Positions 28,343-40,855 of a stretch of DNA of 64,000 nucleotides are shown piece by piece. Positions within the stretch are counted from its first letter, which is position 1. Every line of letters starts with the position of its first letter. Source of the DNA: a bacterium (GTDB lineage: Bacteria > UBA8248); NCBI GenBank assembly GCA_965213685.1, contig CBDBZY010000003.1, forward strand, positions 1-64,000, read 5' to 3'. A model generated the notes under the pieces. It ran no database searches and was not told where the DNA came from. It saw only the letters and a list, made by a program, of their open reading frames with translations. Both the position numbers and the translations under genes were made by a program.

Positions 28343-28863
28343 GCACAGTCGGGATCATCGAGGGTGGTGCCTGGGTGTTCGGGGACAACGTGGACACGGG
28401 CTACATCATGCCGGCGGCGTATGCGAGCCTGCCGGACGAGGAGCTCGGGGAGCATGCGATGGAGGGGATCGACCCCGATTTCGCCCGGAAGGCGCAGGCG
28501 GGCGACGTGATCGTCGGCGGCAGGAATTTCGGTTGCGGCTCCAGCCGGGAGACGGCTCCGCGCGGCATCAAGCGCGCGGGCGTCGGCGCCGTCATCGCCC
28601 GGACGTTCGCCAGAAACTTCTTCAGAAACGCGCTGTGCATCGGGCTACCCGTGCTCATCTGCGCCGAGGCGCGCTCCATCGCGCAGGGGGACAGGCTGCG
28701 CGTCGATCCGATTGCGGGGCGCGTGGAGAACCTCACGAAGGGCGAAACCCTGCAGGCCGAGCCGCTGCCCGACCACATCATGGACATGGTGAAGGCGGGC
28801 GGCCTCGTGCCGTATCTGAAACAGACGCTGGCGCAGGCCGCACCCTCCGCTATCAAGCGGTAA
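28339..28863 (+). CDS. 3-isopropylmalate dehydratase-family small subunit
   Basis: WVFGDNVDT, GRNFGCGSSRE, FARNFFRNA, GGLV. Confidence 0.92.
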   Translation: MSTVGIIEGGAWVFGDNVDTGYIMPAAYASLPDEELGEHAMEGIDPDFARKAQAGDVIVGGRNFGCGSSRETAPRGIKRAGVGAVIARTFARNFFRNALCIGLPVLICAEARSIAQGDRLRVDPIAGRVENLTKGETLQAEPLPDHIMDMVKAGGLVPYLKQTLAQAAPSAIKR

Positions 28864-28942
28864 CAGGTGACCGGCATGATCGCTCATGCATCAACGGAAT
28901 GAAGGCGGGTTGAAAAGTCGCGAGAACCGCTCCGCCCCGGTC

Positions 28943-28958
28943 GGGGGGGGGGGGGGGG
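28943..28958 (+). repeat. Poly-G tract (16 nt) merging into the RBS of the UbiA-family gene
   Basis: Direct count. Confidence 0.8.
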
Positions 28959-28967
28959 AGGCAACCT

Positions 28968-30440
28968 GTGTCCCGAGCGCCGTTGAGGCGTTCCGTCCCG
29001 GGCGCGGAGGGTGATCCGGTCCATCCGACGCCCCTGGTCGTCAACGTCGACGGCGCGCTGGTCGGAGGCGACCTGCTGATCGAAGGCGCCGCCCGTCTGC
29101 TCGCCGCCTCTCCCCTGCAGCTCCTCCGTCTTCTCTTCTCGCTCGTCGGAGGCGGGGGAGGACGCGCGGCGCTCAAGCGCAGGGTCGCGCAGAAGGTTTC
29201 GCTGGCGCCGTCCACGCTGGCGCTGAACCCGGCGGTGCTCGACGAAATCGCCGCCGCCAAGGCCGCCGGCCGCGAGGTCTGGCTGGCGTCGGCCGCCGAC
29301 GAGCTGGCGGTCGCGCCACTTGCCGAGGCCGTGGGCGCGGCCGGCTGTCTCGCCTCCGACGGGCGCGCCAATCTGGCCGGTGCGGCCAAGGCCGCCGCCC
29401 TGGTCGAGCGCTTCGGCGAGGGCGGGTTCGATTACGTCGGAAACGGACGGCGCGACCTGGCGGCGTGGAAGCGCGCGCGGTGCGCCGTCGGCGTCGGCCT
29501 CCCGGCGCGCTTCGCCCGGAAGGTGCGCGCCCTGAACGAAAACGCCCGGTTTCTTCCGGGGATCGGGAGTGGTCCGCGCGACTATCTGCAGGCGCTGCGC
29601 CCGCACCAGTGGGTCAAGAACCTGCTGGTGTTCGCCCCCCTCTCCGCCGCGCACCAGACGGAGGTCGGGCTGTATCTGACGGCGGCCGGGATGTTCGCGG
29701 CGCTGTCGGCTTGCGCGTCGGGCGCGTACCTGCTCAACGACCTGCTCGATCTGCCCCACGACCGCGGACACGCGAGCAAGCGCCGCCGTCCCATCGCGGC
29801 GGGGAAGGTGGCGCTGCCGCCGGCGATGTGCCTCGGCGCGATCCTGGCGGCGGGCGGGCTCGCCCTCGCCTTCGGGCTTTCCCGGCCGGGAGGGCTCTGC
29901 GTGCTGCTCTACCTGCTCCTGACCCTGGCCTACTCCCTGTCGCTGAAGCGAAAGCTGTTCGTCGACGTGGTGACGCTCGGCCTGCTCTACATGGGGCGCG
30001 TCTTCGCCGGGGGGATGGCGGTCTCGGTCCCCCTGTCCCCCTGGTTCCTCGCTTTCTTCATGTTCGCGTTTTTCTCCCTGGCCATCGTCAAGCGACAGGG
30101 CGAGTTGCAGAGGCTGCGCGAATCCGGCGGCACAGTCGTCGAGGGACGCGGCTGGTGCGTCGAGGACATTCCCGTGCTGACGGCGTTCGGCGCGGCGGCC
30201 GGCCTTGCCTCGGTGATCGTCCTCACCCTGTACATCCAGAGCGCGGAAGTGAGCGTGCTGTATGGCCGACCGGAGTTTCTGTGGCTGATCTGCCCGCTGC
30301 TGGTCTACTGGATGGGGCGGATGATGCTGCTCGCCCATCGCAGGACCGTGGACGACGACCCGGTGGCGTTCACCCTGCGGGACCGCGCGAGCTGGCTGAC
30401 CGGCCTGGCGATGGCGGCCGCGTTCGCCGCCGCGCTGTGA
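28968..30440 (+). CDS. HAD-like domain fused to a UbiA-family polyprenyl-phosphate phosphoribosyltransferase (DPPR synthase-like)
   Basis: PLVVNVDGAL (degenerate DxD), NL.GAAKA, FDYVGN; then RPHQWVKNLLVF, YLLNDLLD..DR.H..KRRRPIAAG, YSLSLKRK, DDDPVAF. Confidence 0.9.
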   Translation: MSRAPLRRSVPGAEGDPVHPTPLVVNVDGALVGGDLLIEGAARLLAASPLQLLRLLFSLVGGGGGRAALKRRVAQKVSLAPSTLALNPAVLDEIAAAKAAGREVWLASAADELAVAPLAEAVGAAGCLASDGRANLAGAAKAAALVERFGEGGFDYVGNGRRDLAAWKRARCAVGVGLPARFARKVRALNENARFLPGIGSGPRDYLQALRPHQWVKNLLVFAPLSAAHQTEVGLYLTAAGMFAALSACASGAYLLNDLLDLPHDRGHASKRRRPIAAGKVALPPAMCLGAILAAGGLALAFGLSRPGGLCVLLYLLLTLAYSLSLKRKLFVDVVTLGLLYMGRVFAGGMAVSVPLSPWFLAFFMFAFFSLAIVKRQGELQRLRESGGTVVEGRGWCVEDIPVLTAFGAAAGLASVIVLTLYIQSAEVSVLYGRPEFLWLICPLLVYWMGRMMLLAHRRTVDDDPVAFTLRDRASWLTGLAMAAAFAAAL

Positions 30441-32084
30441 TGGAACGCCGGCGCGCGACCGAAGCCATGTCGCTCAGCGCAGGCCTGTTGCCGGCGCGCT
30501 TGCGGCCCGACCGCTTCACCCTGTTGACGGCCGCCATCGCCGCCCTCGGCGCCGCCCTGGTGCTGGTGCGCGTGCTCCCCTTCGGAGTGATACTGAGCCC
30601 GGATTCGGTGGGTTACATTGCCGCCGCCCGGAGTCTGCTGGCCGGGGAGGGCCTTCTCCACTTCGCCGGAGAGCCTTATGGTTTCTGGCCTCCTCTCTAC
30701 CCCTTGCTACTGGCTGCGGCCAGCCTGGGGATATTCGATCCCATCGCCGTTGCCGGCCCCCTCAACGCCATCCTCTTCGGATTGACCGTGTTCGTCGTGG
30801 GGCGGTACCTGCGGCAACGCCTGGAGTCCCGGTTCCTGGCGGCGTGGGGCTGTCTCGCGACCGCCCTGGCGGTCCCGCTGACGCACGAGTCGTCGTGGGC
30901 GCTCTCCGATCCCCTGTTCATCCTGCTGGCGACCCTCGCCCTGATCCGGACCGACAGGTTCCTGACCGATGGCCGGCTCCGGACGCTGGTCTGGGCGGCG
31001 GCGTTCAGCGCGCTTGCCTGGCAGACCCGGTACATCGGGGTTGCCGTGCCGGTTTTCGTGGGATTGCTGCTTCTTTTCATCCCCCCCCCCCCCCCCCCCC
31101 CCCCGCGCGCCCAAGGGGCTAGGCTCCTTGTCCCGGAGGGTGAGATGCGTCACGGCCTACTCGCTGATCGTGGCGACGCCGATGGCGCTGTGGCTGCTGC
31201 GCAATTACCTGGCCTTCGGAAAGTTCACCAGGCACCAGCCGCCCGGGGACTATCCCGTGTCGATGATGCTGTGGGATGTTGTCGACATCCTGTGGAGCTG
31301 GGCGCGGACCAATCCCGCCGCGGTCCTGGCGCCGTTCGTCTGGGTTCTTGTTATAGCGCGATGGAGGCAATGGACTGTGGCCCGCTGGCGCCCCCTGTGG
31401 CTGTTCGGAGGCTTTGCGCTGACCTACATCGTCCTGCTCATCGCGATCATATCGTTTCTGGTCCGTATATATATGGGGGGAGGTCTTCAGATGAGGTTGC
31501 TCACCCCGCTGTATATTCCGCTCCTGATAGCCGGCGCGTTCGCACTGGACCGGATTCTCGGCCATGAACGGGAGAGGAACCTGTTGGGAAACGTCGGCAG
31601 CCTGCCGTTCTTTCGAACGATGATGCCGGGAAAGAAGGGAAGCGTGCTGGCCGCCATCGTGATGATCGTTCTCTCCCTGGGGGTGGCGAGACAGATGGAT
31701 TTGAACGTCTACCACGTTGCCAAAGCCAACCGCGGCGACTCGCATCTCCTTTTCAACGGGCGGCGCTGGAGCGGTTCGGAAACGGTGCGTTACGTCCGGG
31801 AAAACCTCGTGGGGGCGAAAATATACAGCAACGCACCGAGGCCTTTATTCCTTCACGCTGGCAAAAACCGGAAGTATGCGCCTTGCCATCACCTCCCGAC
31901 GTTGTCGACGTTGCGCGCCAGGCAGGATCGGTTCTGGCGCCAGGATGACGCTTACGTGGTCTGGTTCTACAGACCGTGGAAGCTGCGCCATCGCTATGAC
32001 GAGGCCGCTTTGCGGTCATTGCCGGGACTGAAGCCGGTGGCGGAACTGGCGGACGGCATCGTGTTCAAGGTGGCGGCATGGTGA
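30440..32084 (+). CDS. GT-C-like polytopic membrane glycosyltransferase 1, frameshifted at a C24 tract
   Basis: SPDSVGYIAAARSLLAG, WPPLYPLL, SDPLF, QTRYIG (ArnT/PMT-like); the frame changes at 31081-31104. Confidence 0.75.
31081..31104 (+). repeat. Poly-C tract (24 nt) inside GT-C gene 1
   Basis: Direct count. Confidence 0.8.
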
Positions 32085-32093
32085 GAGGAGGAT

Positions 32094-32109
32094 CCCCCCC
32101 CCCCCCCCC
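32094..32109 (+). repeat. Poly-C tract (16 nt) between GT-C gene 1 and the dprE1-like gene
   Basis: Direct count. Confidence 0.8.
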
Positions 32110-32265
32110 GAACCCGCATCGGCCGGCGTATGAATCCGCCCGCCGACACGCCATGACGGGTTTCGTGGGATCGGGCTCGGGGACGGCCTTGTGTCATGGC
32201 GCGTTCGCCGGCTGTGCGCTCAGGCGCCGGCCGTGCCGACGCTTCGCCTTCTGCGGAGCGGGAGC

Positions 32266-33597
32266 GTGAAGCTCTCCGGCTGGGGCCGGTATCCGGTGCT
32301 CGACTGCCGGGTCGAACGCCTGCGCGAGGGCGGGGCACTACCCGGCCTGCTTCGCCGCGGCGACGCCCTCATCGCCCGCGGCAACGGCCGTTCCTACGGC
32401 GACGCCGCACTCAACCCGGACCTGACGCTCTCCATGCTGGCGATGGACCGGATGCGGGCGTTCGACGCCGGGACCGGCCTCCTGGACTGCGAGGCCGGCG
32501 TGCTGCTCGCCGACATCCTGGAGGCGTTCGCACCGCGCGGCTGGTTCCCGCCGGTGGTTCCGGGAACCAGGTTCGTCACCGTCGGCGGCATGATCGCCGC
32601 GGACGTGCACGGGAAGAACCATCACCGCGAGGGCGCCTTCGGGGCACACGTCGAGTCGCTGGTTCTGGCCGCCGCGGACGGCGAGATGCGGGAGTGCAGC
32701 CGAACGGAGCGCGCCGACCTGTTTCGCGCCACCATCGGCGGGATGGGGCTGACCGGGGTGATCCTCTCCGCGCGCTTCCGGCTGCGGCGGATCGAGACCG
32801 CCTTCGTGATGGAGGAGACCCTGGCCGCGCGCGACCTCGACGAAACCATGGCCTTGTTCGAGGCGTCCCGCGAGTGGCCGTACAGCGTGGCCTGGATCGA
32901 CTGCCTGGCACAAGGCGCACAGCTGGGCCGTGCGGTGATGACGCGCGGCGCATTCATGGACCGCAGCGCGCTGCCGGCGCGACTGGCGTCGGCTCCCCTG
33001 CGTCCGGCGCGGGCGGGCAGGCTCGCGGTTCCGGTCGATGCGCCGTCCGTTCTGCTCAACCGCTTTTCGATCCGTCTGTTCAACGCGCTGTACCACCGGC
33101 GCGGGCGCATGCGCACCGGGGCGCGGCCGCTCCATTTCGCTCCGTTCTTCTTTCCCCTGGACGGGGTCGAGGCGTGGAACCGCCTCTACGGGCGGCGTGG
33201 ATTCGTCCAGTACCAGTGCGTGCTGCCCAAAAGCGAAAGCGCGGCCGGCGTCGCCGCCCTCCTGGAGCGCGCAGCCGCGTCCGGGCGGGGTTCGTTCCTC
33301 GCAGTGCTCAAACTCTTCGGCCCCGCCGGAGACGGGCTGATGTCGTTCCCCATGGAAGGCTATACGCTCGCGCTCGATTTTCCGATGCGCAACGGAGCGC
33401 TGGGGCTGCTCGACGAACTCGACGCGATCACCCATCGCCACGGCGGGCGGGTCTATCTCGCCAAGGACGTTCGCTGCACCCCCGAGCGGGTGCGCGAGGG
33501 CTATCCGCGCCTCGACGCCTTCGCGGCGGTCCGCGCCGAGGCGGCCGGGGCGCGGCCCAGGTTCGCCTCCGCCCTCTCGCGCAGGCTCGCGCTGTGA
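32266..33597 (+). CDS. DprE1-like FAD-dependent decaprenylphosphoryl-ribose 2'-oxidase
   Basis: LSGWGRYP, ARGNGRSYGDAA, VVPGTRFVTVGGMIAADVHGKNHH, YSVAWID, FFPLD, YGRRGFVQYQ, SFLAVLKLFG, GYTLALDF, GGRVYLAKD. Confidence 0.92.
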   Translation: MKLSGWGRYPVLDCRVERLREGGALPGLLRRGDALIARGNGRSYGDAALNPDLTLSMLAMDRMRAFDAGTGLLDCEAGVLLADILEAFAPRGWFPPVVPGTRFVTVGGMIAADVHGKNHHREGAFGAHVESLVLAAADGEMRECSRTERADLFRATIGGMGLTGVILSARFRLRRIETAFVMEETLAARDLDETMALFEASREWPYSVAWIDCLAQGAQLGRAVMTRGAFMDRSALPARLASAPLRPARAGRLAVPVDAPSVLLNRFSIRLFNALYHRRGRMRTGARPLHFAPFFFPLDGVEAWNRLYGRRGFVQYQCVLPKSESAAGVAALLERAAASGRGSFLAVLKLFGPAGDGLMSFPMEGYTLALDFPMRNGALGLLDELDAITHRHGGRVYLAKDVRCTPERVREGYPRLDAFAAVRAEAAGARPRFASALSRRLAL

Positions 33598-33617
33598 AGG
33601 AAGGAGACCATCTGACC

Positions 33618-35515
33618 ATGCCGCGCAACGCCGCCCCGAACGCTCTCCGGCGGGGCACCGGACGGATACCGCGGGCGCTGCTGGCCTCGTTGCTGGGCGG
33701 GCTGTTGTTCGTCCTGGTCTTCGGATGGGCCTATTCGGGCATCGAGGGCGAGCTCTACAAGGCGCGCGACGATGGCGTGATCACGATGAGCCATGCCCGG
33801 AACCTGGTGGAGTACGGGTTCATCGGGGTCAACCCTTCCGGCGGCCGGGTCGAGGCATACTCGGCGCCGGTGCAACTCTTCCTCTACGTCGCCGCGTATG
33901 CGGTCGCCGGCGTCGGCTACGCCGCATATGCGGAAGCGCAAACGATTGTTGCGACTTTTCTGCTGGGCGCGCTGCTGGTGCTGTTTTTCCCGGAACGGAA
34001 AGTCCTGGCCGTCGCCCTGGCCGGGTTGGCCGCAGTGTTCCTGGTCTGGATGCGGCCCTTCCTGCTGTGGCACGGATCGGGGATGGAGAACGCCGTCACC
34101 CACGTCCTCTTTCTGGCGGCCGTGCTGAGCATGGTCAGGCTGGCTCGGAACCTCGGGGGGGGGGGGGGGGGGGGGACTGGTTGGCCATCCCGATCTTCCT
34201 GGCGTCCGTCTCCCGCATTGACGGCATCTGGCACATCGGTCCCCTGCTGGTTGTTTTCGGGATGTTCTGGCGGGTGGCGTTTCGAGACTGGCGAGGGGCG
34301 CGTGTTTCCCTGCTGGTCCTGGGGCTGTGGGTCCTGTTCCAGGGATGGCGGTATTCGTATTTCGGCGACCTGCTGCCCAACGTAGCCTACGCCCGGGGCA
34401 TTTCCGTATACGACAATCTCCGTCCCTGGCTGGCGCTGAATTGGGGGCATATGGCCCGGGCGGTCGTTCGCGCCGGCTCCATCCTGGATTCTCACGGCGG
34501 TGTGCTGCTGCTGTCGTTGCCCGCGCTCCTGGTCGTATCCCCACGCCGGGAGTACACGCTGTTGGCGCTGCTTCTCGGCAGCCTGGCCCTGACCTCGGCA
34601 TTCAACGAGGCGGTTTTCGGCCGCGCGCTACTGGATGGTGCGAGAACGACCACGCACCTCGCCGTGGTCTCGGCTCTCGGGGCCGTCGCGCTTCTGTATT
34701 GCCTGCTGCGCAGCCGGCGAACCCGGTGGGCCGCTCCGGTGCTGGTCATGACGGGATTGCTGGCGTTGGGCATGAAGTCGGTCGAACCATATCCCATATG
34801 TTGCAAGTCCCTGCGCATCGAAGCCAATCGGCAGTATTTCGCCCGGATTTCGCACGCGGAGGACCTGCCCCGCGCCACAGTCGCCACCCCCGCTCTGGGC
34901 GTGACGAGCTGGCACAAGCAGTTCAACGTCGTGGACTTGCTCTTTCATGGTTCGCCCTTGATGGCCAAGCTGCGACCGCCACTCCGGGCGGACTACTTCT
35001 TCCACTACGCCGCTCCGGACCTCATTTACGCGCTCAGCGCTCCTGCCTGCCGCCGGGATGCCGAGATATTCTCCGACCCCCGGTTTGGCCGGCTATACCA
35101 ACCACTGAAGGTGTGGATAACGGATTGGACCAGAGAACACTGTCATGCCAACCCCCAGTCCCGGACGGGATTCTGGATACGCAGGGACATCCTCAAATCA
35201 TCGGGATCCGCTGAAAGGCGGCTCATTGAACATATGAAGACCGACTTGTCCTCCGCGCGGTTGCAGGACGAGCTCGGACGCTGCCAGGACATCGCCACAG
35301 GCCTTCACGACTGCGCCTACGTGGCGCGGACCGCCTACCGGTTCCTGCCGGAATTTGCAAGCCGGGGCCAGATGAATCGACTCGAGGAAATCTTCGCGGC
35401 CAGCCGTACCGCGCCCTTCGACCTCTACCTGATCACCGGATACCGGGACGCCCGGGCGCACCGCGCCTTCATCCGCTTCCTGAGGGAGCTTCAACCGGAG
35501 AAGGGACGGCGCTGA
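33618..35515 (+). CDS. GT-C-like membrane glycosyltransferase 2 (AftB-like N-terminal DD motif), frameshifted at a G21 tract
   Basis: RDDGVITMSHARNL..YG...NPSGGRVEAYSAP, SGMEN, SRIDG, RYSYFGDLLPNVAYA; the frame changes at 34155-34175. Confidence 0.75.
34155..34175 (+). repeat. Poly-G tract (21 nt) inside GT-C gene 2
   Basis: Direct count. Confidence 0.8.
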
Positions 35516-35680
35516 TCGCTGCGCGGCCTTCGGACATCGGGTGTGCCAGTGAAACGATGGGTCGAATGCCGGGCCGGCCTGCTGTCGATCCGGCATGGAA
35601 TTTCGACCGGGCCATCGGTAAGATGTCCGCCCGTCTCCCGGGGCGGCTTCGACCTCGTGGATCATCAAGAAGGCGACGCA

Positions 35681-35722
35681 CATGGAAGGCTATATACGCT
35701 CGCGCTCGATTTTCCGACGCGC
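35681..35722 (+). repeat. ~42-bp near-identical copy of dprE1-internal segment 33351-33390
   Basis: CATGGAAGGCTATA(TA)CGCTCGCGCTCGATTTTCCGA(C/T)GCGC occurs at both sites. Confidence 0.85.
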
Positions 35723-37734
35723 CCTGCCCGCCCCGCTGCGCAACGCGCTGTTCGCCATGTTCATCGGCGGCGTCCTGGCCTACGGAGCCAGTTTCGCCTG
35801 GTATCTTCTCGCCCGCTTCGACCTGGTCAACCTGCTCCGCGACGTCAACGGCGACGACTCCTTCTACTACTTTCAGATCGCCAGGAATCTGGCGGAAGGA
35901 AAGTTCTCGACCTTTGACGGCGGCATTACCCGGACCAACGGGTATCACCCCATCTGGATGCTACTCATCACGCCATTCTACTGGGTATTTGACGCCGAGC
36001 CCGCGTTGTTCGCCATCAAGGCTTTCGAGATCATGCTCATTGCCGGCGGCGTGACGCTCATCGTTCTGGCTGCCCGCGTAGCGCGGTTGCCCTGGATTCT
36101 GTTGTTCGCTGCGCTGCCATTTCTCTATGGTTACAGAGCCTTCTTTCGAGGGATGGAAAGCGCCGCCGCGTTGTTCATGCTTGGCCTGCTCTTCCTGACC
36201 ATGACTCTCTTTGCGCGGAATCCGGCCCGGTGGACGTGGCCGCTGGCCGCGGTGGCCTTCGCCCTCCCATGGGTCCGTCTGGAGTTCGCCGCCGTTTCGG
36301 TGGCGGCAACGGCGATGCTGTATGTTGTCGAGCGGCCGGCCCGGGACCGCTCGCCCTGCGCATCACCCGCTCTCCGGGCGTGTGTTCCGCTGTTCGGTGC
36401 GTGTTCGGGTATCCTCGCCTACTTCGCCTACAACTGGCTTGTCTTCGGTGGTGCTGTGCCAGTGAGCGGGGCGATCAGGCAAATGTGGTCGCAGAACCAC
36501 TGGAAGCGGGAAGGCGGGTACAGTCTCACGCAAAACTTCCATGATGTCCTGCAAGTTCCCGCCTTCGGCACCGGGCTGGCGGTGGCTCTGGGAACCTGCG
36601 TTTGCGTTCTCCTGGTTCTGTGGTCCACCCGCCGCGTCCGCCGGCGGGACGACAGGTTGCTCCTGCACTTTCTGGCGGCCGCATTCGGCCTGGCGGTGGG
36701 CCACATGGCGAAGTTTGCGCAGACGGTCCTCATGGTGGACCCCACCTGGGGAAGCTACGCGCACTACTTCGTTCCGGTGTATCTGATGGCGGCATTGATT
36801 GTGCCGATTGCATGCTATGTCGCGTTGCACCTCATTCGTCGCTTCGTCGAACCAAGGCTCGGCCGCGCGGCCACTGTCCCGCGTTTGGGTATCGTCGCTG
36901 CTGGCGCGCTCGCGTTGTTGATCCAGACGGACTTTACCGGCCCATTCCGATATGTTGACGGGGCAAGCGAGTCCTCTCAACGCGAGTGGGAGATCACCAG
37001 CTACCTGGGCGCGCAAGTGATGAACCGTGTGCTTCCCGGGGACAGCGTGATCGGGTCATGGGACTCTGGCGTCCTGGGATATTTCTCGCGCTTCCCGGTA
37101 GTGAATATGGACGGCGTGGTGAATTCCTACGACTACATGCAAGCGAGCAATGCAGCAAAGTGGGGGCGAGGTGAGCAGTTCGGGATTACCCATTTCGCCA
37201 ACGGCCGGCCTCGAATCATCCCTCCGAGGCGCTGGATCACCCACTTCGGGATTACCCATTTCGCCAACGTCGTCCCGGTCAGCCGACGCAAAAATACCGC
37301 ACTGTTCGAAGGGTTTCCATTTTTTCAGGGGTACGAACGGAAATTCCAACTCCGCCCAGCGTTGCCGCTGGAGGCGTCGTTGGGCGATTTCGACAAAGAC
37401 GCCTGGTTTTGGGAGCAAATGGCGCCTCACTGGGACTACGAGTCGGAGTCCGTCTCGGTCGTCGTCGACGGCAACATGGCGCAGGCGTTCTTCAAGGATC
37501 ATACGTTGGCGAAAACCCGTGACGAACCGTTGGTTTTTTCCTGGTTCACCGAGAAAGGAAAGCAATTCCGCGTTTGGCGCCCGTGGGAAAGCATAGGTGA
37601 GAACGACGGGGGGGGGGGGGGGGGGGGGGATTCTATCAAGCTTTTTCGATTTACCTAACGATGTCGCGCATCCCGTTCGGATCACGACAGCGCCAGCCGG
37701 CAGCGTCCGCCACGGCGCGGATGCTCCCCAATGA
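35682..37734 (+). CDS. GT-C-like membrane glycosyltransferase 3; as assembled it stops at 37658, with the likely true end at 37734 after a G22 tract
   Basis: GDDSFYYFQIARNLAEG..STFDGGITRTNGYHPIW, GMES, SWDSGVLGYFS, VNMDGVVNS. The +1 frame after the tract (ILSSFFDLPNDVAHPVRIT...) ends in an ATGA overlap with the next gene. Confidence 0.75.
37179..37269 (+). repeat. 25-bp perfect direct repeat TTCGGGATTACCCATTTCGCCAACG (37179-37203, 37245-37269)
   Basis: Encodes FGITHFAN twice, 66 bp apart and in frame. Confidence 0.9.
37608..37629 (+). repeat. Poly-G tract (22 nt) near the 3' end of GT-C gene 3
   Basis: Direct count. Confidence 0.8.
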
Positions 37735-40115
37735 AGAAAGGTATCTTGCCTACACTCCGAAGGGCGCTCTATCCTCTGTCGTTCCTGCCCTGGCTGGGGC
37801 TGCTCGGCTGGTTCTCCGCCGTCGCCTGGTTCCTCTGCGACGACGCCTTCATCAGCTTCCGCTACGCCCGCAACCTGCTGGAGGGCCACGGGCTGGTCTT
37901 CAACCCCGGCGAATACGTCGAGGGCTATAGCAACTTCCTGTGGGTGCTGGAGCTGGCCGCGATCTGGGGGCTGCTGGGGATTCCCCCGGAGCGGGCGGCG
38001 CCCTGGCTGTCCGTCGCCTGCACCGTCGGCACTCTCGTCGCACTGGGCGTGTGGTGCGCCCGGCTGCCTCGGCTGCGCCACCGGCGGCTGGTCGCCTGGA
38101 TGGCCTTCGGCCTGCTGTGCTCCAGCGCCACCTTCGCGGTGTGGACCTCGGGCGGCGGGCTGGAGACGCGGCAGTTCACTCTGTTCACCGTCTTGGCCGT
38201 GCTCTGCCTGAGCCTCCGGCGTTCGGAGCGCCGGGGTCTGGTGGCGGCCTCGCTGAGCCTGGCGCTGGCCGCCGGCACCCGGCCCGAGGGATTGATGACG
38301 GGGCTCCTATGCGTCGGCTGGTTCGCTCTTCAGTCGATGGCGGACGCCGGGCGTCCTCGCCCGGACTGGCGGCGGCTGGCGTGGTTGGCGGCGCCCTTCC
38401 TCGCGCTGGTGGCCGCCCACTACCTGTTCCGCTACGCCTACTACGGCGAGTGGCTGCCCAACACCTACTACGCCAAGCACGTGCGGCCCTGGTATGAGTC
38501 GGGCTTCCGCTACCTGTGGGCGGCGGCGCTGGAGACGGGGCTGTATCTCCTCCTGCCCCTGGTCGCCCTCGCCGCGCGCGAGCGTTGGCGTGCGCACCGG
38601 GACGGGGCGTTCGCGCTCCCGCTCCTCCTGGTCGGCGTCCACATGGCTTACGTGATGCGGGTCGGCGGCGACCATTTCGAATACCGGCCGCTGGATTTTT
38701 ACTGGCCGCTGCTGGCGCTTCCGGCGGCGGCGGGGATCGCGCATCTCGGCTCCCGCCTGGCCGCCGGCCGCTGGCGTCCCCGTCTTCCCGCGCTTGGCGC
38801 GATGGGCACACGGGCCTGCGCGGCGGCCGTCTTCGCGCCGGTTCTGTTCTACGCCGGCGCGATCCAGGGCGCGCTGCTGTTTGATGGGGCTGCGATACGC
38901 GAACGTATCTTTAAACTGCATATAGAATTGGATGATGAAAACGCCGGGTGGCTGCTCCACGCGCCCGGGATGCCGATGCTCGTCGCCATCTCCAACGACC
39001 TGCGACGCCTGGCTGCCAAACAGCTGGTCGCTTCGCCCTTCACGGAGCACCGCGAATTCGCCAGAGTGCGTTTGCGACGATGGAAGCCCTACGAGAAGAT
39101 GGAACGGGGAATCATTCCCGATGACGCTCTAGCGGTCTTTGGCGCGCTTGGCGTTCGGTCCTATTATCTTCCGGACCTCAGAGTCATCGACAGAAATGGC
39201 CTGACTGATGCAACCGTGGCCCGCAACCCGGCCACCCGCGCGAATCACAAACGGGTTATCGGCCATGATCGGCGACCGCCGCCGGGATACCTCGAAGAGC
39301 GGGGCGTCAACATCACCGTGCGTTTCGCGGCGCGCAATCCGACGAAGGCGCTCATGCGGGGGCGCTATGCCGTGCGGGTCGGCCCGAATCTCTGGATGCC
39401 GTTCAGCTCCCCGGACGAGGAGTGGGTTCTCGACCGCTTCGCCGGACGCAATCTGCAGGTGCGAGACAAGCGATACGCCCGCCTGTCCTGGGAGAAGGCG
39501 GCGCCGGACTTCGACTACCGGTCGGGGGACCTGGGGTTCGTGGTGGAGGTGAACCTATTCTCAAGCAACGCCAGGATACAGGCGTTCGCCAGGAGCTGCG
39601 CGCCGGACGAGCTGTTGGTATGGCCCTGGTTGAACAGGAGGAGGTACGCACCGGCAAGCCGCTGGACGATCAACGAGACGGGGCTGTGCCGGGCCACCGC
39701 CGTAACGTCTCGGAAGTGGATCAGGTCGGGCGTCGACGATCTGTCCCGGCTGGAGGAAGTCAAGCGGGTGAAGGCAGTCGCCATTCGCTCGGTGTTCAAC
39801 GTCTATCTGCTGGGCAGGCGCCTGATCTACTCCAGGCAGCCATGCCGTCCGGGCGACAACGCCGGGCGGTTCTTCCTGCACGTGTTTCCGGTCGATGCGC
39901 GCGACCTTCCCCGTGCGCGCCGGAAATACGGTTTCGACAATCTGGACTTCCGGATGGAGGCGCCCAAGAAGGCTGGAGGGCATTGCACGGCGGTGCGCAA
40001 GCTGCCGGACTATCCCATCGCCAAGATTCGTGCCGGCCAATACCTCAAAAGCGTGGGCCGGCTCTGGGAGGGAACTATCGCCGGTCCGGGCAGTAGCGGG
40101 AGGCCGCCGCCATGA
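37731..40115 (+). CDS. GT-C-like membrane glycosyltransferase 4 (AftB-like) with a soluble C-terminal domain
   Basis: CDDAFISFRYARNLLEGHGLVFNPGEYVEGYSNFLW, GGGLET, TRPEG, YYGEWLPNTYYAK, VGGDHFEYR, IDRNGLTD. Confidence 0.82.
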   Translation: MKKGILPTLRRALYPLSFLPWLGLLGWFSAVAWFLCDDAFISFRYARNLLEGHGLVFNPGEYVEGYSNFLWVLELAAIWGLLGIPPERAAPWLSVACTVGTLVALGVWCARLPRLRHRRLVAWMAFGLLCSSATFAVWTSGGGLETRQFTLFTVLAVLCLSLRRSERRGLVAASLSLALAAGTRPEGLMTGLLCVGWFALQSMADAGRPRPDWRRLAWLAAPFLALVAAHYLFRYAYYGEWLPNTYYAKHVRPWYESGFRYLWAAALETGLYLLLPLVALAARERWRAHRDGAFALPLLLVGVHMAYVMRVGGDHFEYRPLDFYWPLLALPAAAGIAHLGSRLAAGRWRPRLPALGAMGTRACAAAVFAPVLFYAGAIQGALLFDGAAIRERIFKLHIELDDENAGWLLHAPGMPMLVAISNDLRRLAAKQLVASPFTEHREFARVRLRRWKPYEKMERGIIPDDALAVFGALGVRSYYLPDLRVIDRNGLTDATVARNPATRANHKRVIGHDRRPPPGYLEERGVNITVRFAARNPTKALMRGRYAVRVGPNLWMPFSSPDEEWVLDRFAGRNLQVRDKRYARLSWEKAAPDFDYRSGDLGFVVEVNLFSSNARIQAFARSCAPDELLVWPWLNRRRYAPASRWTINETGLCRATAVTSRKWIRSGVDDLSRLEEVKRVKAVAIRSVFNVYLLGRRLIYSRQPCRPGDNAGRFFLHVFPVDARDLPRARRKYGFDNLDFRMEAPKKAGGHCTAVRKLPDYPIAKIRAGQYLKSVGRLWEGTIAGPGSSGRPPP

Positions 40116-40855
40116 ACGACGGGCGGGCGGCGGCGCTGGTGCTCGGCGCCACGTCGGACATCGGCCGCGCCATCGCGCGCGCGCTGGCGCGCGGCGGCTA
40201 CGCGATGCAGCTCGCGGGGCGCGACCTGGCGCGGCTCGAGCGGGAAGCGCGGGACATCCGGGTGCGCACCGGCGCCGTCGTGACCTCCCATTGCGCCGAC
40301 GCGCTCCGGGACGATGGCGGCGTCTCGATGCTCGATGCGCTCGACCCCCTGCCCGAGGTGGCGGTCTGCGTCGTCGGGCTGCTTGGCGACCAGGCGGAGA
40401 GCCAGGAGAACGGCGCCGCCGCCGAGCGGGTGATGCGAACCAACTACGTCGGCCCCGCGCTGCTGGTGGGCGCCCTTGCCGAGCGGTTCGAGCGGCGCGG
40501 CAGCGGCGTCCTGGTCGGCGTCAGTTCGGTGGCGGGCGAGCGCGGGCGCGCCGCGAACTACGTGTATGGCTCCGCCAAGGCGGGGTTCACGGCGTTCCTG
40601 TCCGGGCTGCGCAACCGGCTGTCCGCATCCGGCGTTCACGTGGTGACGGTCAAGCCGGGCTTCGTGCGCACCCGCATGACGGACGGGATGGCGCTGCCGG
40701 CGCGGCTGACCGCCACGCCCGAAGAAGTGGCCGCGGCAGTCGTTCGGGCGATCCGCCGCCGCCGCGACGTGGTGTACGTGCGCCGCGTCTGGGGGCCGAT
40801 CATGCGCATCATGCGCGCCATCCCCGAGCCGGTCTTCAAGCGGCTGAGGCTGTAG
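40112..40855 (+). CDS. DprE2-like short-chain dehydrogenase (2-keto-pentose reductase)
   Basis: LGATSDIG, SSVAGERGRAANYVYGSAKAG, SGLRNRL, VKPGFVRTRMT; clustered with dprE1 and ubiA. Confidence 0.9.
   Translation: MNDGRAAALVLGATSDIGRAIARALARGGYAMQLAGRDLARLEREARDIRVRTGAVVTSHCADALRDDGGVSMLDALDPLPEVAVCVVGLLGDQAESQENGAAAERVMRTNYVGPALLVGALAERFERRGSGVLVGVSSVAGERGRAANYVYGSAKAGFTAFLSGLRNRLSASGVHVVTVKPGFVRTRMTDGMALPARLTATPEEVAAAVVRAIRRRRDVVYVRRVWGPIMRIMRAIPEPVFKRLRL

Follow-up and report, generated by a model that had tools for sequence, protein, structure and literature searches.

An operon of putative donor-pathway and transferase genes carries five long G/C tracts

The DNA analyzed here is a 64,000-nt stretch (the window) from an uncultured bacterium of GTDB lineage UBA8248 (GenBank assembly GCA_965213685.1, contig CBDBZY010000003.1), and its subject is an operon in which genes resembling those of an arabinose donor pathway lie among genes for predicted membrane glycosyltransferases and long runs of G or C. 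The window forms the start of contig C3 of the assembly (G000; 7.97 Mb, 71 contigs). With a cut-off of ≥15 nt it contains six homopolymers, the next longest run being 8–9 nt (Table 1). An earlier reading of the letters alone, referred to below as the original prediction, had proposed that the five runs lying within 8.7 kb form a phase-variable switchboard of surface arabinosylation, and its coordinates and lengths for all six runs are exact.

Using a plot of GC content at third codon positions (GC3 frame plot), family scans and junction sequences, we find a single plus-strand operon between ordinary metabolic genes, in the order G16, HAD-UbiA, GT-C1 (with C24), C16, DprE1-like, GT-C2 (with G21), a 166-nt gap, ORF3 (with G22), ORF4 and DprE2-like. 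The donor-pathway genes and the C-type glycosyltransferase (GT-C) genes are therefore co-located in one operon with overlapping stops and starts; for example, the start of GT-C1 overlaps the ubiA stop (TGATG). Two of the tracts occupy spacers. The GTG start of HAD-UbiA follows 9 nt after G16, whose final Gs together with the adjacent AGG form a Shine-Dalgarno-like GGAGG site, while C16 begins 9 nt past the GT-C1 stop and ends 81 nt upstream of the DprE1-like start. The ubiA, dprE1 and dprE2 coding regions, which had been described as tract-free, indeed contain no run of ≥8 nt.

Table 1. Homopolymeric tracts of at least 15 nt and operon genes in the window.
Feature	Coordinates	Strand	Context or assignment
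C15	6849..6863	-	G15 on the coding strand; outside the operon
G16	28943..28958	+	105-nt spacer separating a LeuD-like gene from HAD-UbiA
HAD-UbiA	28968..30440	+	UbiA-family prenyltransferase (decaprenyl-phosphate phosphoribosyltransferase-like) with a fused HAD phosphatase-like domain
GT-C1	30437..32084	+	~547 codons in two frames, 30437-31080 and 31105-32084
C24	31081..31104	+	poly-Pro codons, between the GT-C1 halves
C16	32094..32109	+	106-nt spacer separating GT-C1 from the DprE1-like gene
DprE1-like FAD oxidase	32191..33597	+	Pfam FAD_binding_4
GT-C2	33618..35515	+	~630 codons, split at G21
G21	34155..34175	+	poly-Gly codons, in a variable stretch of GT-C2
ORF3 (GT-C3 of the original prediction)	35682..37734	+	35682-37607 in one frame, then a tail past G22
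G22	37608..37629	+	close to the 3' end of ORF3
ORF4	37731..40115	+	predicted fourth GT-C gene with AftB-like N-terminal module; no tract
DprE2-like short-chain reductase	40112..40855	+	start overlaps the ORF4 stop (ATGA)

The putative donor-pathway proteins were assigned by family scans. HAD-UbiA matches Pfam UbiA (2.2e-21) plus HAD and exceeds the cut-off of NCBIfam NF006088 (534 bits against 351), and it scores 146.9 bits with the DPPR synthase model NF008978, below the cut-off of 207. The DprE1-like oxidase scores 445.4 bits (E 2.9e-133) with the DprE1 model NF053785, below its cut-off of 500, and no family was passed. The DprE2-like reductase passes NF005489 (the short-chain dehydrogenase/reductase family PRK07102; 331 bits, cut-off 267) and scores 195.2 bits with the DprE2 model NF053786, below the cut-off of 250. 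The equivalog cut-offs for DPPR synthase, DprE1 and DprE2 are thus reached by none of the three proteins, and each of these models is the best or near-best specific match. Judged by these scores, the predicted donor-pathway genes are recognizable but divergent.

The four membrane proteins were more elusive. None matches Pfam at E 1e-3 (the best hit is PMT at E 0.19), and a sequence search of the PDB found no match for the GT-C1 family or for ORF3. ORF4 aligns over residues 18–262 with AftB (PDB 9dlf, E 8.5e-6) and also hits the AftB NCBIfam NF041481 at E 1.5e-6, yet with 26.6 bits against a cut-off of 1050. GT-C2 belongs to an unannotated family of 610–750 aa proteins that share the N-terminal motif RDDGVITMSHARNLVDYGFIGVNPSGGRVEGYSAP; the profile of this family matches the N-terminal module of ORF4 (hhalign probability 95%, E 2.4e-8), and it matches AftB 9dlf at E 0.022. 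These similarities support the view that ORF4 and GT-C2 carry AftB-like sequence. For the other two families we built structure models of intact homologs (alignments of 39 and 40 sequences) rather than of the split proteins of the window. The model of the GT-C1 homolog P0085 (predicted local distance difference test, pLDDT, 85.3) matches ArnT best (PDB 5f15, E 3.1e-8, template modeling (TM) score 0.57), followed by STT3, PglB, ALG9/12, AftA, Emb, AftD and AftB. For the model of the ORF3 homolog P0159 (pLDDT 77.2), the first 32 matches listed are GT-C enzymes only, with E values of 1.4e-5 to 7.6e-3 and TM scores of 0.34–0.47. A GT-C fold is thereby supported by modeling for both the GT-C1 and the ORF3 families. 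Near the N-terminus, all four families also conserve a DD (or D-S) sequence motif with ARNL or ARSL after it. By sequence comparison, the GT-C genes of this operon are members of unannotated families outside any curated one; at least 75 homologs were found for GT-C1, at least 83 for GT-C2 and at least 1175 for ORF3, with a Pfam domain on record for only one of those listed. The labels of the original prediction are thus broadly right, with HAD-UbiA, DprE1-like and DprE2-like genes present and the transferases supported by GT-C fold or AftB-like matches.

LpxC and BamA are both present in this bacterium, indicating that its envelope has an outer membrane and not a mycolate wall.

Intragenic tracts coincide with frame changes

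Reading frames were established from the GC3 frame plot, three-frame translations and alignments to intact homologs. Each of the three intragenic tracts, C24, G21 and G22, coincides with a frame change, and the lengths that would restore the frame are 3n+2, 3n+1 and 3n, respectively; both the location of these tracts in transferases and the frame arithmetic had been given correctly in the original prediction. Where GT-C1, GT-C2 and ORF3 can be aligned to homologs, they show no break besides the tract.

Intact homologs of 520–556 aa match both GT-C1 halves in collinear order. At the C24 site the homologs have a short stretch of varying length that reads LLLF-[H/Q/Y]-P, or YPPPH in P0099, and this genome reads LLLF-I-(Pro)8. 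Similarly, the halves of GT-C2 are collinear with intact homologs of 610–750 aa, and at the G21 site P0002 (82% identity) has NPERGGAYW where this genome has NL-(Gly)n-DW. For ORF3, the nearest homologs P0159 and P0160 (71% identity) continue with ILSSVFELPNDAGRPVRITTAPAGSI, and the tail ILSSFFDLPNDVAHPVRITTAPAGSV, which is encoded past G22 in the next frame, matches both of them. These homologs rule out an intergenic position of G22, which we had considered. With a tract of 3n, ORF3 would end in a conserved 34-residue tail, its TGA stop (37732-37734) overlapping the ORF4 start codon ATG, and as assembled, with G22, it ends prematurely at 37658, 73 nt earlier.

The tract cluster is non-random on the bacterial contigs

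Assembly G000 is bimodal in base composition, with 49 contigs at ≥60% GC (3.07 Mb) and 22 contigs below (4.90 Mb, for example C64, C18 and C41). The low-GC DNA (GC mode ~0.44) makes up over half of an assembly presented as a prokaryote genome. The low-GC contigs carry long A/T as well as G/C runs in a flank context that differs from that of the high-GC contigs, on which no A/T run exceeds 11 nt, and every copy of MutS, MutL, LpxC and BamA that we looked for maps to high-GC contigs. Based on these differences in runs, flanks and markers, we take the 3.07 Mb of high-GC contigs as the bacterial DNA and the proper background; genome-wide statistics on this assembly need to be split by GC. The whole assembly, with its 228 G/C runs of ≥15 nt, was rejected as background since the low-GC contigs contribute runs of their own in another flank context, and their inclusion would mask the clustering.

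The bacterial contigs contain 35 G/C runs of ≥15 nt compared with 0.22 expected from base composition. Their run-length histogram falls geometrically to ~10 nt, and beyond this a flat tail stands apart, covering lengths of 11–44 nt. When 35 tracts were placed uniformly on these contigs, five tracts within 8.7 kb were reached in only 2 of 20,000 permutations, and the five-tract cluster is non-random. The original prediction had named an even spread of equally long tracts over the genome as evidence that would count against it; long tracts do occur elsewhere but they are not evenly spread. We also considered whether the tracts mark chimeric joins through poly-G. This was rejected, as there is no GC jump at tracts (median difference across tracts 0.0255, against 0.0235 at random positions) and gene order is collinear with homologous cassettes.

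The long runs have a distinctive flank. On the G strand, C precedes 44 of the 49 runs of ≥12 nt on the bacterial contigs, as compared with 52% of G6-7 runs (1581 of 3056) and 26% of G8-9 runs (37 of 145), and only 17 of 323 long runs on the low-GC contigs are preceded by C. The base 3' of the long G runs is C (28) or A (19). All six tracts of the window follow this C-Gn rule, and most of the matches listed from other metagenome-assembled genomes (MAGs) also begin with C. Such a bias suggests that the tracts have a biased origin, which keeps alive a neutral explanation of the kind discussed below.

Tract lengths differ between public contigs

Four public sequencing runs of one study contain 34–58% of the words that we sampled and two more contain small shares. 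We compared contigs, not reads, from three of the four and from one small-share run. G16 is G15 in a 41-kb contig of run X3 and G16 in run X4, and C16 is likewise C15 in X3 and C16 in X4. G21 is G13 in X3 and G19 in X4 (2 letters are absent at 34155); both lengths are 3n+1 and leave GT-C2 in frame. The X3 contig has 326 letters over 334 nt with 0 other differences, placing all of the missing letters within the G21 run. Hence all three tracts that are bridged by public contigs vary in length between runs, with identical flanks of 326–690 nt. These runs may include the source sample of the assembly and so are not independent proof that the tracts exist, though the lengths differ. The contigs of run X5 end at tracts, and that of X1 is exact over 28500-28921 and ends 22 nt before G16. 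Apparent joints whose sides measure 20–21 nt are cross-matches between homopolymers and were left out of the comparison. Among metagenome contigs, a search with the exact-flank pattern of the G21 site gave 0 matches and a protein scan gave 3 loci at only 34–35% identity.

The operon is accessory and its relatives carry tracts at recurrent positions

Of 22 congeneric genomes, many consisting of a single contig, none yielded GT-C2 or a DprE1 ortholog, indicating that the operon is accessory. Twelve of these 22 genomes have no G15 run at all, which argues that the tracts are no generic product of the assembly method.

Scanning one genome per species for relatives of GT-C1, we found 60 loci (49–80% identity to the N-terminal half) with 108 GT-C1 copies. 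The titles of the host MAGs name Gamma- and Alphaproteobacteria, Pseudomonadales, Anaerolineales, Dehalococcoidia, Caldilineaceae, Aggregatilineales, Spirochaetia, Nitrospirales, Binatia, Bryobacterales, Latescibacterota and others. In a gammaproteobacterial MAG (OZ244045.1, locus L048) HAD-UbiA (82% identity), two GT-C1 copies, DprE1 (81%), ORF4 (76%) and DprE2 (92%) occur in the same order, and similar cassettes are present in Nitrospirales, Binatia and Pseudomonadales MAGs, with gene order shared by L048, L049, L062 and L063. Identities of 76–92% across phyla point to horizontal transfer. The title of L048 places it in a different phylum from most other holders, which is evidence for a recent transfer of the whole operon. 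The other MAGs, whose titles name no habitat, would appear to be sponge symbionts, as judged from the window's own assembly and from a public run that contains a small share of the sampled words and is labeled as a sponge metagenome.

The GT-C1-like family is large and rapidly duplicating, with ~10 tandem copies per 20 kb in Caldilineaceae loci. Tandem arrays occur in L074, L078 and L079 (Caldilineaceae MAG OZ241379.1), in L092 and L093 (Bryobacterales) and in L101 (Ca. Marinacidobacterium), and in the arrays each GT-C1-like gene is followed by a segment of ~100 residues that resembles the C-terminus of ORF4 (residues ~685–784).

Over the 60 loci, 10 of 27 runs of ≥10 nt fall inside the matched GT-C1 gene, which makes up 9.1% of the sequence (binomial P 7.6e-5). 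We also measured run positions from the junction of the N- and C-terminal halves in the 108 copies, over -900 to +1200 nt, and obtained 24 runs of ≥9 nt. Five lie directly upstream of the start codon, six (G or C, 9–14 nt) lie at +8 to +15 nt, which is the C24 site, ten lie at +499 to +591 nt, and three are elsewhere. L101 has a G26 at the C24 site as well. In one complete genome, the paralogs L084 and L088 have a G19 and a G20 at a shared position. We translated seven tract-bearing GT-C1 homologs, one of which keeps the frame and six of which do not. Genome-wide, runs of ≥12 nt number 24–63 in four of five complete MAGs with GT-C1 genes and 2 in the remaining one.

Other tracts of this bacterium fall in defense genes and in spacers

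Of the 49 runs of ≥12 nt on the bacterial contigs, 44 were located by hand relative to genes, using flanking open reading frames (ORFs) and family scans; the remaining five are G12 or C12. Fifteen of the 44 are inside genes and 29 are intergenic or at gene ends, and none of the 44 is in the body of a housekeeping gene. Outside the operon there are 12 intragenic tracts, ten of them in nine defense genes and two in one GT-C-like gene.

The defense set consists of N6_N4 methylases with or without an Mrr domain (L023, L024, L037), an open 1610-aa methylase-helicase with an in-frame G44 (L029), two N6 (HsdM-like) methylases (L041, L043), two Type ISP enzymes (L027, L039) and a DUF1156 anti-phage protein that is split at C30 (L033). 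These genes are distributed over contigs C31, C33, C36, C40, C44, C48 and C63, and their runs are 13–44 nt long. Six were translated, giving three in frame and three out of frame, and the conserved motifs resume past the tract. We therefore list these nine restriction-modification and defense genes as a candidate set of phase-variable methylases.

Five intragenic tracts fall in four GT-C-type genes, namely the three of the window and one at 239 kb of contig C3. The latter gene (734 aa) has a G13 and a G17 near its 5' end, both out of frame, shares a C-terminal domain with the ORF3 and GT-C2 families (hhalign probability 97%) and adjoins a GT2 transferase. It belongs to a second cluster with four tracts within ~6 kb (L015, G000:C3:236500-248000), in which it also adjoins a 686-aa uncharacterized membrane ORF with a C14 upstream of that ORF. 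Some intergenic tracts adjoin sugar-nucleotide or flippase genes (L036, L038, L042). Others are in housekeeping spacers, with a G29 between nusG and rplK (L040, G000:C58:85861-85889) and a C31 between rpsA and hup (L022, G000:C29:89994-90024).

A contingency-locus interpretation and its rivals

We consider it reasonably likely that the five tracts are classic slipped-strand contingency loci in an accessory, horizontally mobile operon. Several observations underlie this interpretation. All three bridged tracts vary in length with identical flanks. The split genes are collinear with intact homologs and are broken only at the tracts. The tracts cluster, in a genome with 35 such runs against 0.22 expected. 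Tract hotspots recur in the GT-C1 copies of other phyla, and the other intragenic tracts are restricted to defense genes and one GT-C-like gene.

According to the mechanism that we propose, HAD-UbiA and the DprE1-like and DprE2-like enzymes would make a polyprenyl-phosphate pentose donor by a route of the mycobacterial decaprenylphosphoryl-arabinose (DPA) type, and the four GT-C transferases would use the lipid-linked donor on the periplasmic side of a diderm envelope. The operon probably adds arabinose-type sugars to the envelope. The sugar may be D-arabinofuranose, and lipopolysaccharide, pilin or another envelope glycoconjugate may serve as acceptor. Slippage at C24, G21 or G22 by a length that is not a multiple of three would put the gene out of frame and a later slip would restore it, such that each tract-bearing transferase would flip independently and heritably, presumably at high frequency within the population. 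An in-frame ORF3 would regain its ATGA overlap with ORF4, which in turn overlaps the DprE2-like gene, and G22 may in this way tune downstream translation. For the donor pathway, G16, at the HAD-UbiA ribosome-binding site, and C16, in the spacer upstream of the DprE1-like gene, would adjust the level of expression and not switch it. Evasion of phages or of host recognition could be the benefit. Transcriptional slippage at tracts of such length could make OFF states leaky.

A number of findings weigh against this interpretation. C24 and G22 are bridged by no public contig (gaps at 31065-31118 and 37598-37637), and contigs drop minority variants and can misstate homopolymer length, which makes the differences of 15 versus 16 weak and leaves 13, 19 and 21 as the stronger evidence. 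The in-frame G13 and G19 fit selection for the ON state as well as they fit switching. At the tract sites, the nearest homologs of GT-C2 (P0002) and of ORF3 (P0159/P0160, 71%) have no run, and the shift at G22 alters only the final 34 residues of ORF3. Most tracts of the genome are intergenic, including those in the housekeeping spacers nusG|rplK and rpsA|hup, and so the tracts are no marker of surface genes as such. Campylobacter and Helicobacter are not known to have MutS/MutL-type repair. Here MutS (C19, C38) and MutL (C3) are present on high-GC contigs, and loss of mismatch repair is rejected as a cause of the tracts.

The assembly also has indel errors elsewhere, at breaks without a long tract, by which the three OFF states may be length miscalls. 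Within 5 kb of contig C3 (L016, G000:C3:290179-295199) three frames are needed to read rplM, and both rpsI and a UDP-glucose dehydrogenase gene are split; lpxC and a thiamine pyrophosphate enzyme look split as well (G000:C19:33661-34399 and L025), with no long homopolymer at the breaks. Split rplM, rpsI, lpxC and the like point to ordinary indel errors or to a mixed-strain consensus. A seemingly split aconitase upstream of the operon, which we considered as a sign of bad local assembly, proved on the frame plot to be two adjacent subunit genes. The ON/OFF states in this assembly are unreliable and evidence of nothing; the evidence rests on the tracts, their positions and their variation and not on OFF states. 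Homopolymers are moreover the likeliest places for length errors. The predicted switchboard itself is supported in part. The tracts, the frame arithmetic, the variation between runs and the GT-C1 hotspots speak for it, and the indel errors and the in-frame G21 of public contigs leave its OFF states unsupported. The original prediction had suggested a test for enrichment of long runs in surface genes; the intragenic tracts are in GT-C-type and defense genes only, and most tracts are intergenic. It had also suggested a check of whether orthologs keep tracts at the same positions; for GT-C1, six runs of 9–14 nt among the 108 copies and the G26 of L101 do lie there, and the nearest homologs of GT-C2 and ORF3 have none.

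The bias toward C-Gn runs could mean that the tracts are a neutral by-product, generated and expanded by a mutational bias of this bacterium and of several co-occurring lineages wherever they are tolerated, as in intergenic DNA and in dispensable accessory genes with several copies (R-M genes and GT-C paralogs, for example), with the frame breaks being early pseudogenization or harmless noise. The C before 44 of 49 long runs fits such an origin, as do the 29 of 44 placed tracts that are intergenic or at gene ends, some of them within housekeeping operons, the 24–63 runs of ≥12 nt in four of five other complete GT-C1-bearing MAGs, and the out-of-frame state of six of seven translated tract-bearing homologs. 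GT-C1 is moreover redundant, with up to ~10 tandem copies per 20 kb, and the loss of one copy may cost little. What this account explains poorly is that the GT-C1 tracts sit at three narrow hotspots and not at random positions, that the split genes have no other visible lesion, that G21 is in frame at both public lengths, and that the 15 intragenic tracts spare housekeeping bodies and fall into two classes typical of adaptive phase variation. Even with a neutral origin, tracts this long would yield ON/OFF heterogeneity, and on balance we regard a purely neutral explanation as unlikely.

We think it quite improbable that the tracts are stable, that is, poly-Gly and poly-Pro loops in frame and G/C-rich spacers that do not switch, the frame changes being miscalls and the length differences being strain differences or contig errors. 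The indel errors elsewhere in the assembly would be in keeping with this, G13 and G19 are both in frame, long in-frame tracts such as the G44 of the 1610-aa methylase-helicase gene do exist, and the corresponding positions of homologs are rich in Pro or Gly. However, runs of 16–24 identical bases rank among the least stable sequences owing to slipped-strand mispairing, and a fixed length is physically unlikely for them; all three bridged tracts differ between runs with identical flanks, and the paralogs L084 and L088 differ (G19 and G20) at one site. A role in structure-based regulation, through G-quadruplexes or through pairing of G16 with C24 or C16 and of C16 with G21 or G22, could attenuate transcription or translation irrespective of length. 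Along a single strand of this operon the tracts do follow the order G-C-C-G-G, spacers immediately before or after genes contain many tracts, and elsewhere in the genome a C17 and a G26 are 6 nt apart. Such regulation leaves unexplained the frame breaks and the recurrence of tracts at protein loop positions as either G or C, and a fixed structural element does not need the length variation seen between runs; we hold it to be very unlikely.

A broader extension of the contingency-locus interpretation is conceivable, though we find it doubtful. Symbionts of many phyla in the same animal hosts might share, by horizontal transfer, a kit for glycan diversification comprised of a DPA-type donor pathway and expanding GT-C arrays, with C-Gn tracts installed independently in each lineage, at the same few gene positions and in defense methylases; the strong C-Gn flank bias would then be the mark of a dedicated, or at least shared, tract-generating process. 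The community would then run mutation-driven lotteries of envelope and epigenome against sponge phagocytes and phages.

Comparison with known systems

Poly-G tracts in the glycosyltransferase genes of the Neisseria gonorrhoeae lgt locus vary the lipooligosaccharide (PMC2192423). As in lgt, a single locus here contains several glycosyltransferase genes with an intragenic poly-G/C run that sets the frame, which would give combinatorial glycan variation. The Neisseria lgt enzymes are soluble nucleotide-sugar transferases and their tracts are ~8–17 nt long. In contrast, the predicted enzymes of this operon are GT-C-fold membrane proteins encoded together with a lipid-linked donor pathway, the tracts are 16–24 nt, two of them lie in spacers of donor-pathway genes, and the organism is an uncultured sponge-associated diderm.

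The wider gene spectrum of the tracts, some of them in frame and some out, resembles that of the Campylobacter and Neisseria phasomes, where tracts occur in restriction-modification or methyltransferase genes and in surface-glycan genes (PMC6321876, PMC5953494). Unlike those phasomes, the present genome has MutS and MutL, much longer tracts (up to 44 nt), many more intergenic tracts and a strong C-Gn bias, of which we know no earlier description, no literature search having been aimed at it.

Pilin arabinosylation by TfpW of Pseudomonas aeruginosa is, by analogy, the nearest functional analogue outside Actinobacteria. Abstracts on this system describe D-arabinofuranose glycosylation of pilin (bioRxiv 10.1101/2020.04.19.049825) and protection by pilin glycosylation against pilus-specific phages (bioRxiv 10.1101/150227). 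P. aeruginosa is likewise a Gram-negative organism outside Actinobacteria in which, by the same abstracts, a GT-C-type enzyme adds D-arabinofuranose oligomers to a surface structure. The operon differs from the TfpW system in having no evident pilin gene and four GT-C genes rather than one, and in its tracts, phase variation being absent from those abstracts.

With the mycobacterial DPA pathway (UbiA/Rv3806c, DprE1, DprE2) the operon has in common that the same three enzyme families adjoin GT-C transferases, and the structure models match mycobacterial AftA, AftB, AftD and EmbA/B/C (PDB 9dlf, 8if8, 6w98, 7bvf) among other GT-C structures. It differs in that all three putative donor enzymes are below the equivalog cut-offs, UbiA is fused to HAD, the GT-C1 family model matches ArnT best, and the cell has an outer membrane (LpxC, BamA) and no mycolate wall.

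Phase variation of surface glycans by strand slippage is textbook material in the case of a few human pathogens and, to our knowledge, has barely been considered for uncultured invertebrate mutualists; literature searches on sponge symbionts, phase variation, homopolymers, arabinosyltransferase and DprE1 found no published description of such a locus. Switching of this kind is known; what differs here is its possible setting, namely GT-C enzymes with a DPA-type donor operon, long tracts, mismatch repair that is present, and a potential kit shared across phyla. If the tracts switch, one operon could give rise to many envelope glycoforms in a sponge-associated bacterium, which would bear on how symbionts escape a filter-feeding host and phages. 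By tying three large unannotated families of membrane proteins to a predicted DPA-type pathway outside Actinobacteria, the operon also offers a first lead on their function. For annotation, tract-bearing genes of this kind will routinely be called split genes or pseudogenes. All five tracts fit within one HiFi read.

Additional observations

The sixth long run of the window, C15, is located between a shikimate-dehydrogenase-like gene and a family III CoA-transferase gene, ~25 nt upstream of the likely ATG. On contig C5 (47018-47066, L017) the C17 and the G26 that are 6 nt apart have the potential to form a long perfect hairpin; no annotatable gene is found there, the nearest family match being a SCO1/SenC-like ORF ~0.8 kb away. 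Finally, a domain of ~110 residues, DVYL..LIYVKEPC....FFLHL.P.D..DLP..R...GFDNLDF...G.C.A...LPDY.IA.I.TGQ, is shared by the C-termini of different GT-C families. It is absent from the window's own copies and present in P0002, P0008 and P0010 of the GT-C2 family, in P0162 and P0165 of the ORF3 family, and in L015:2453-4654.

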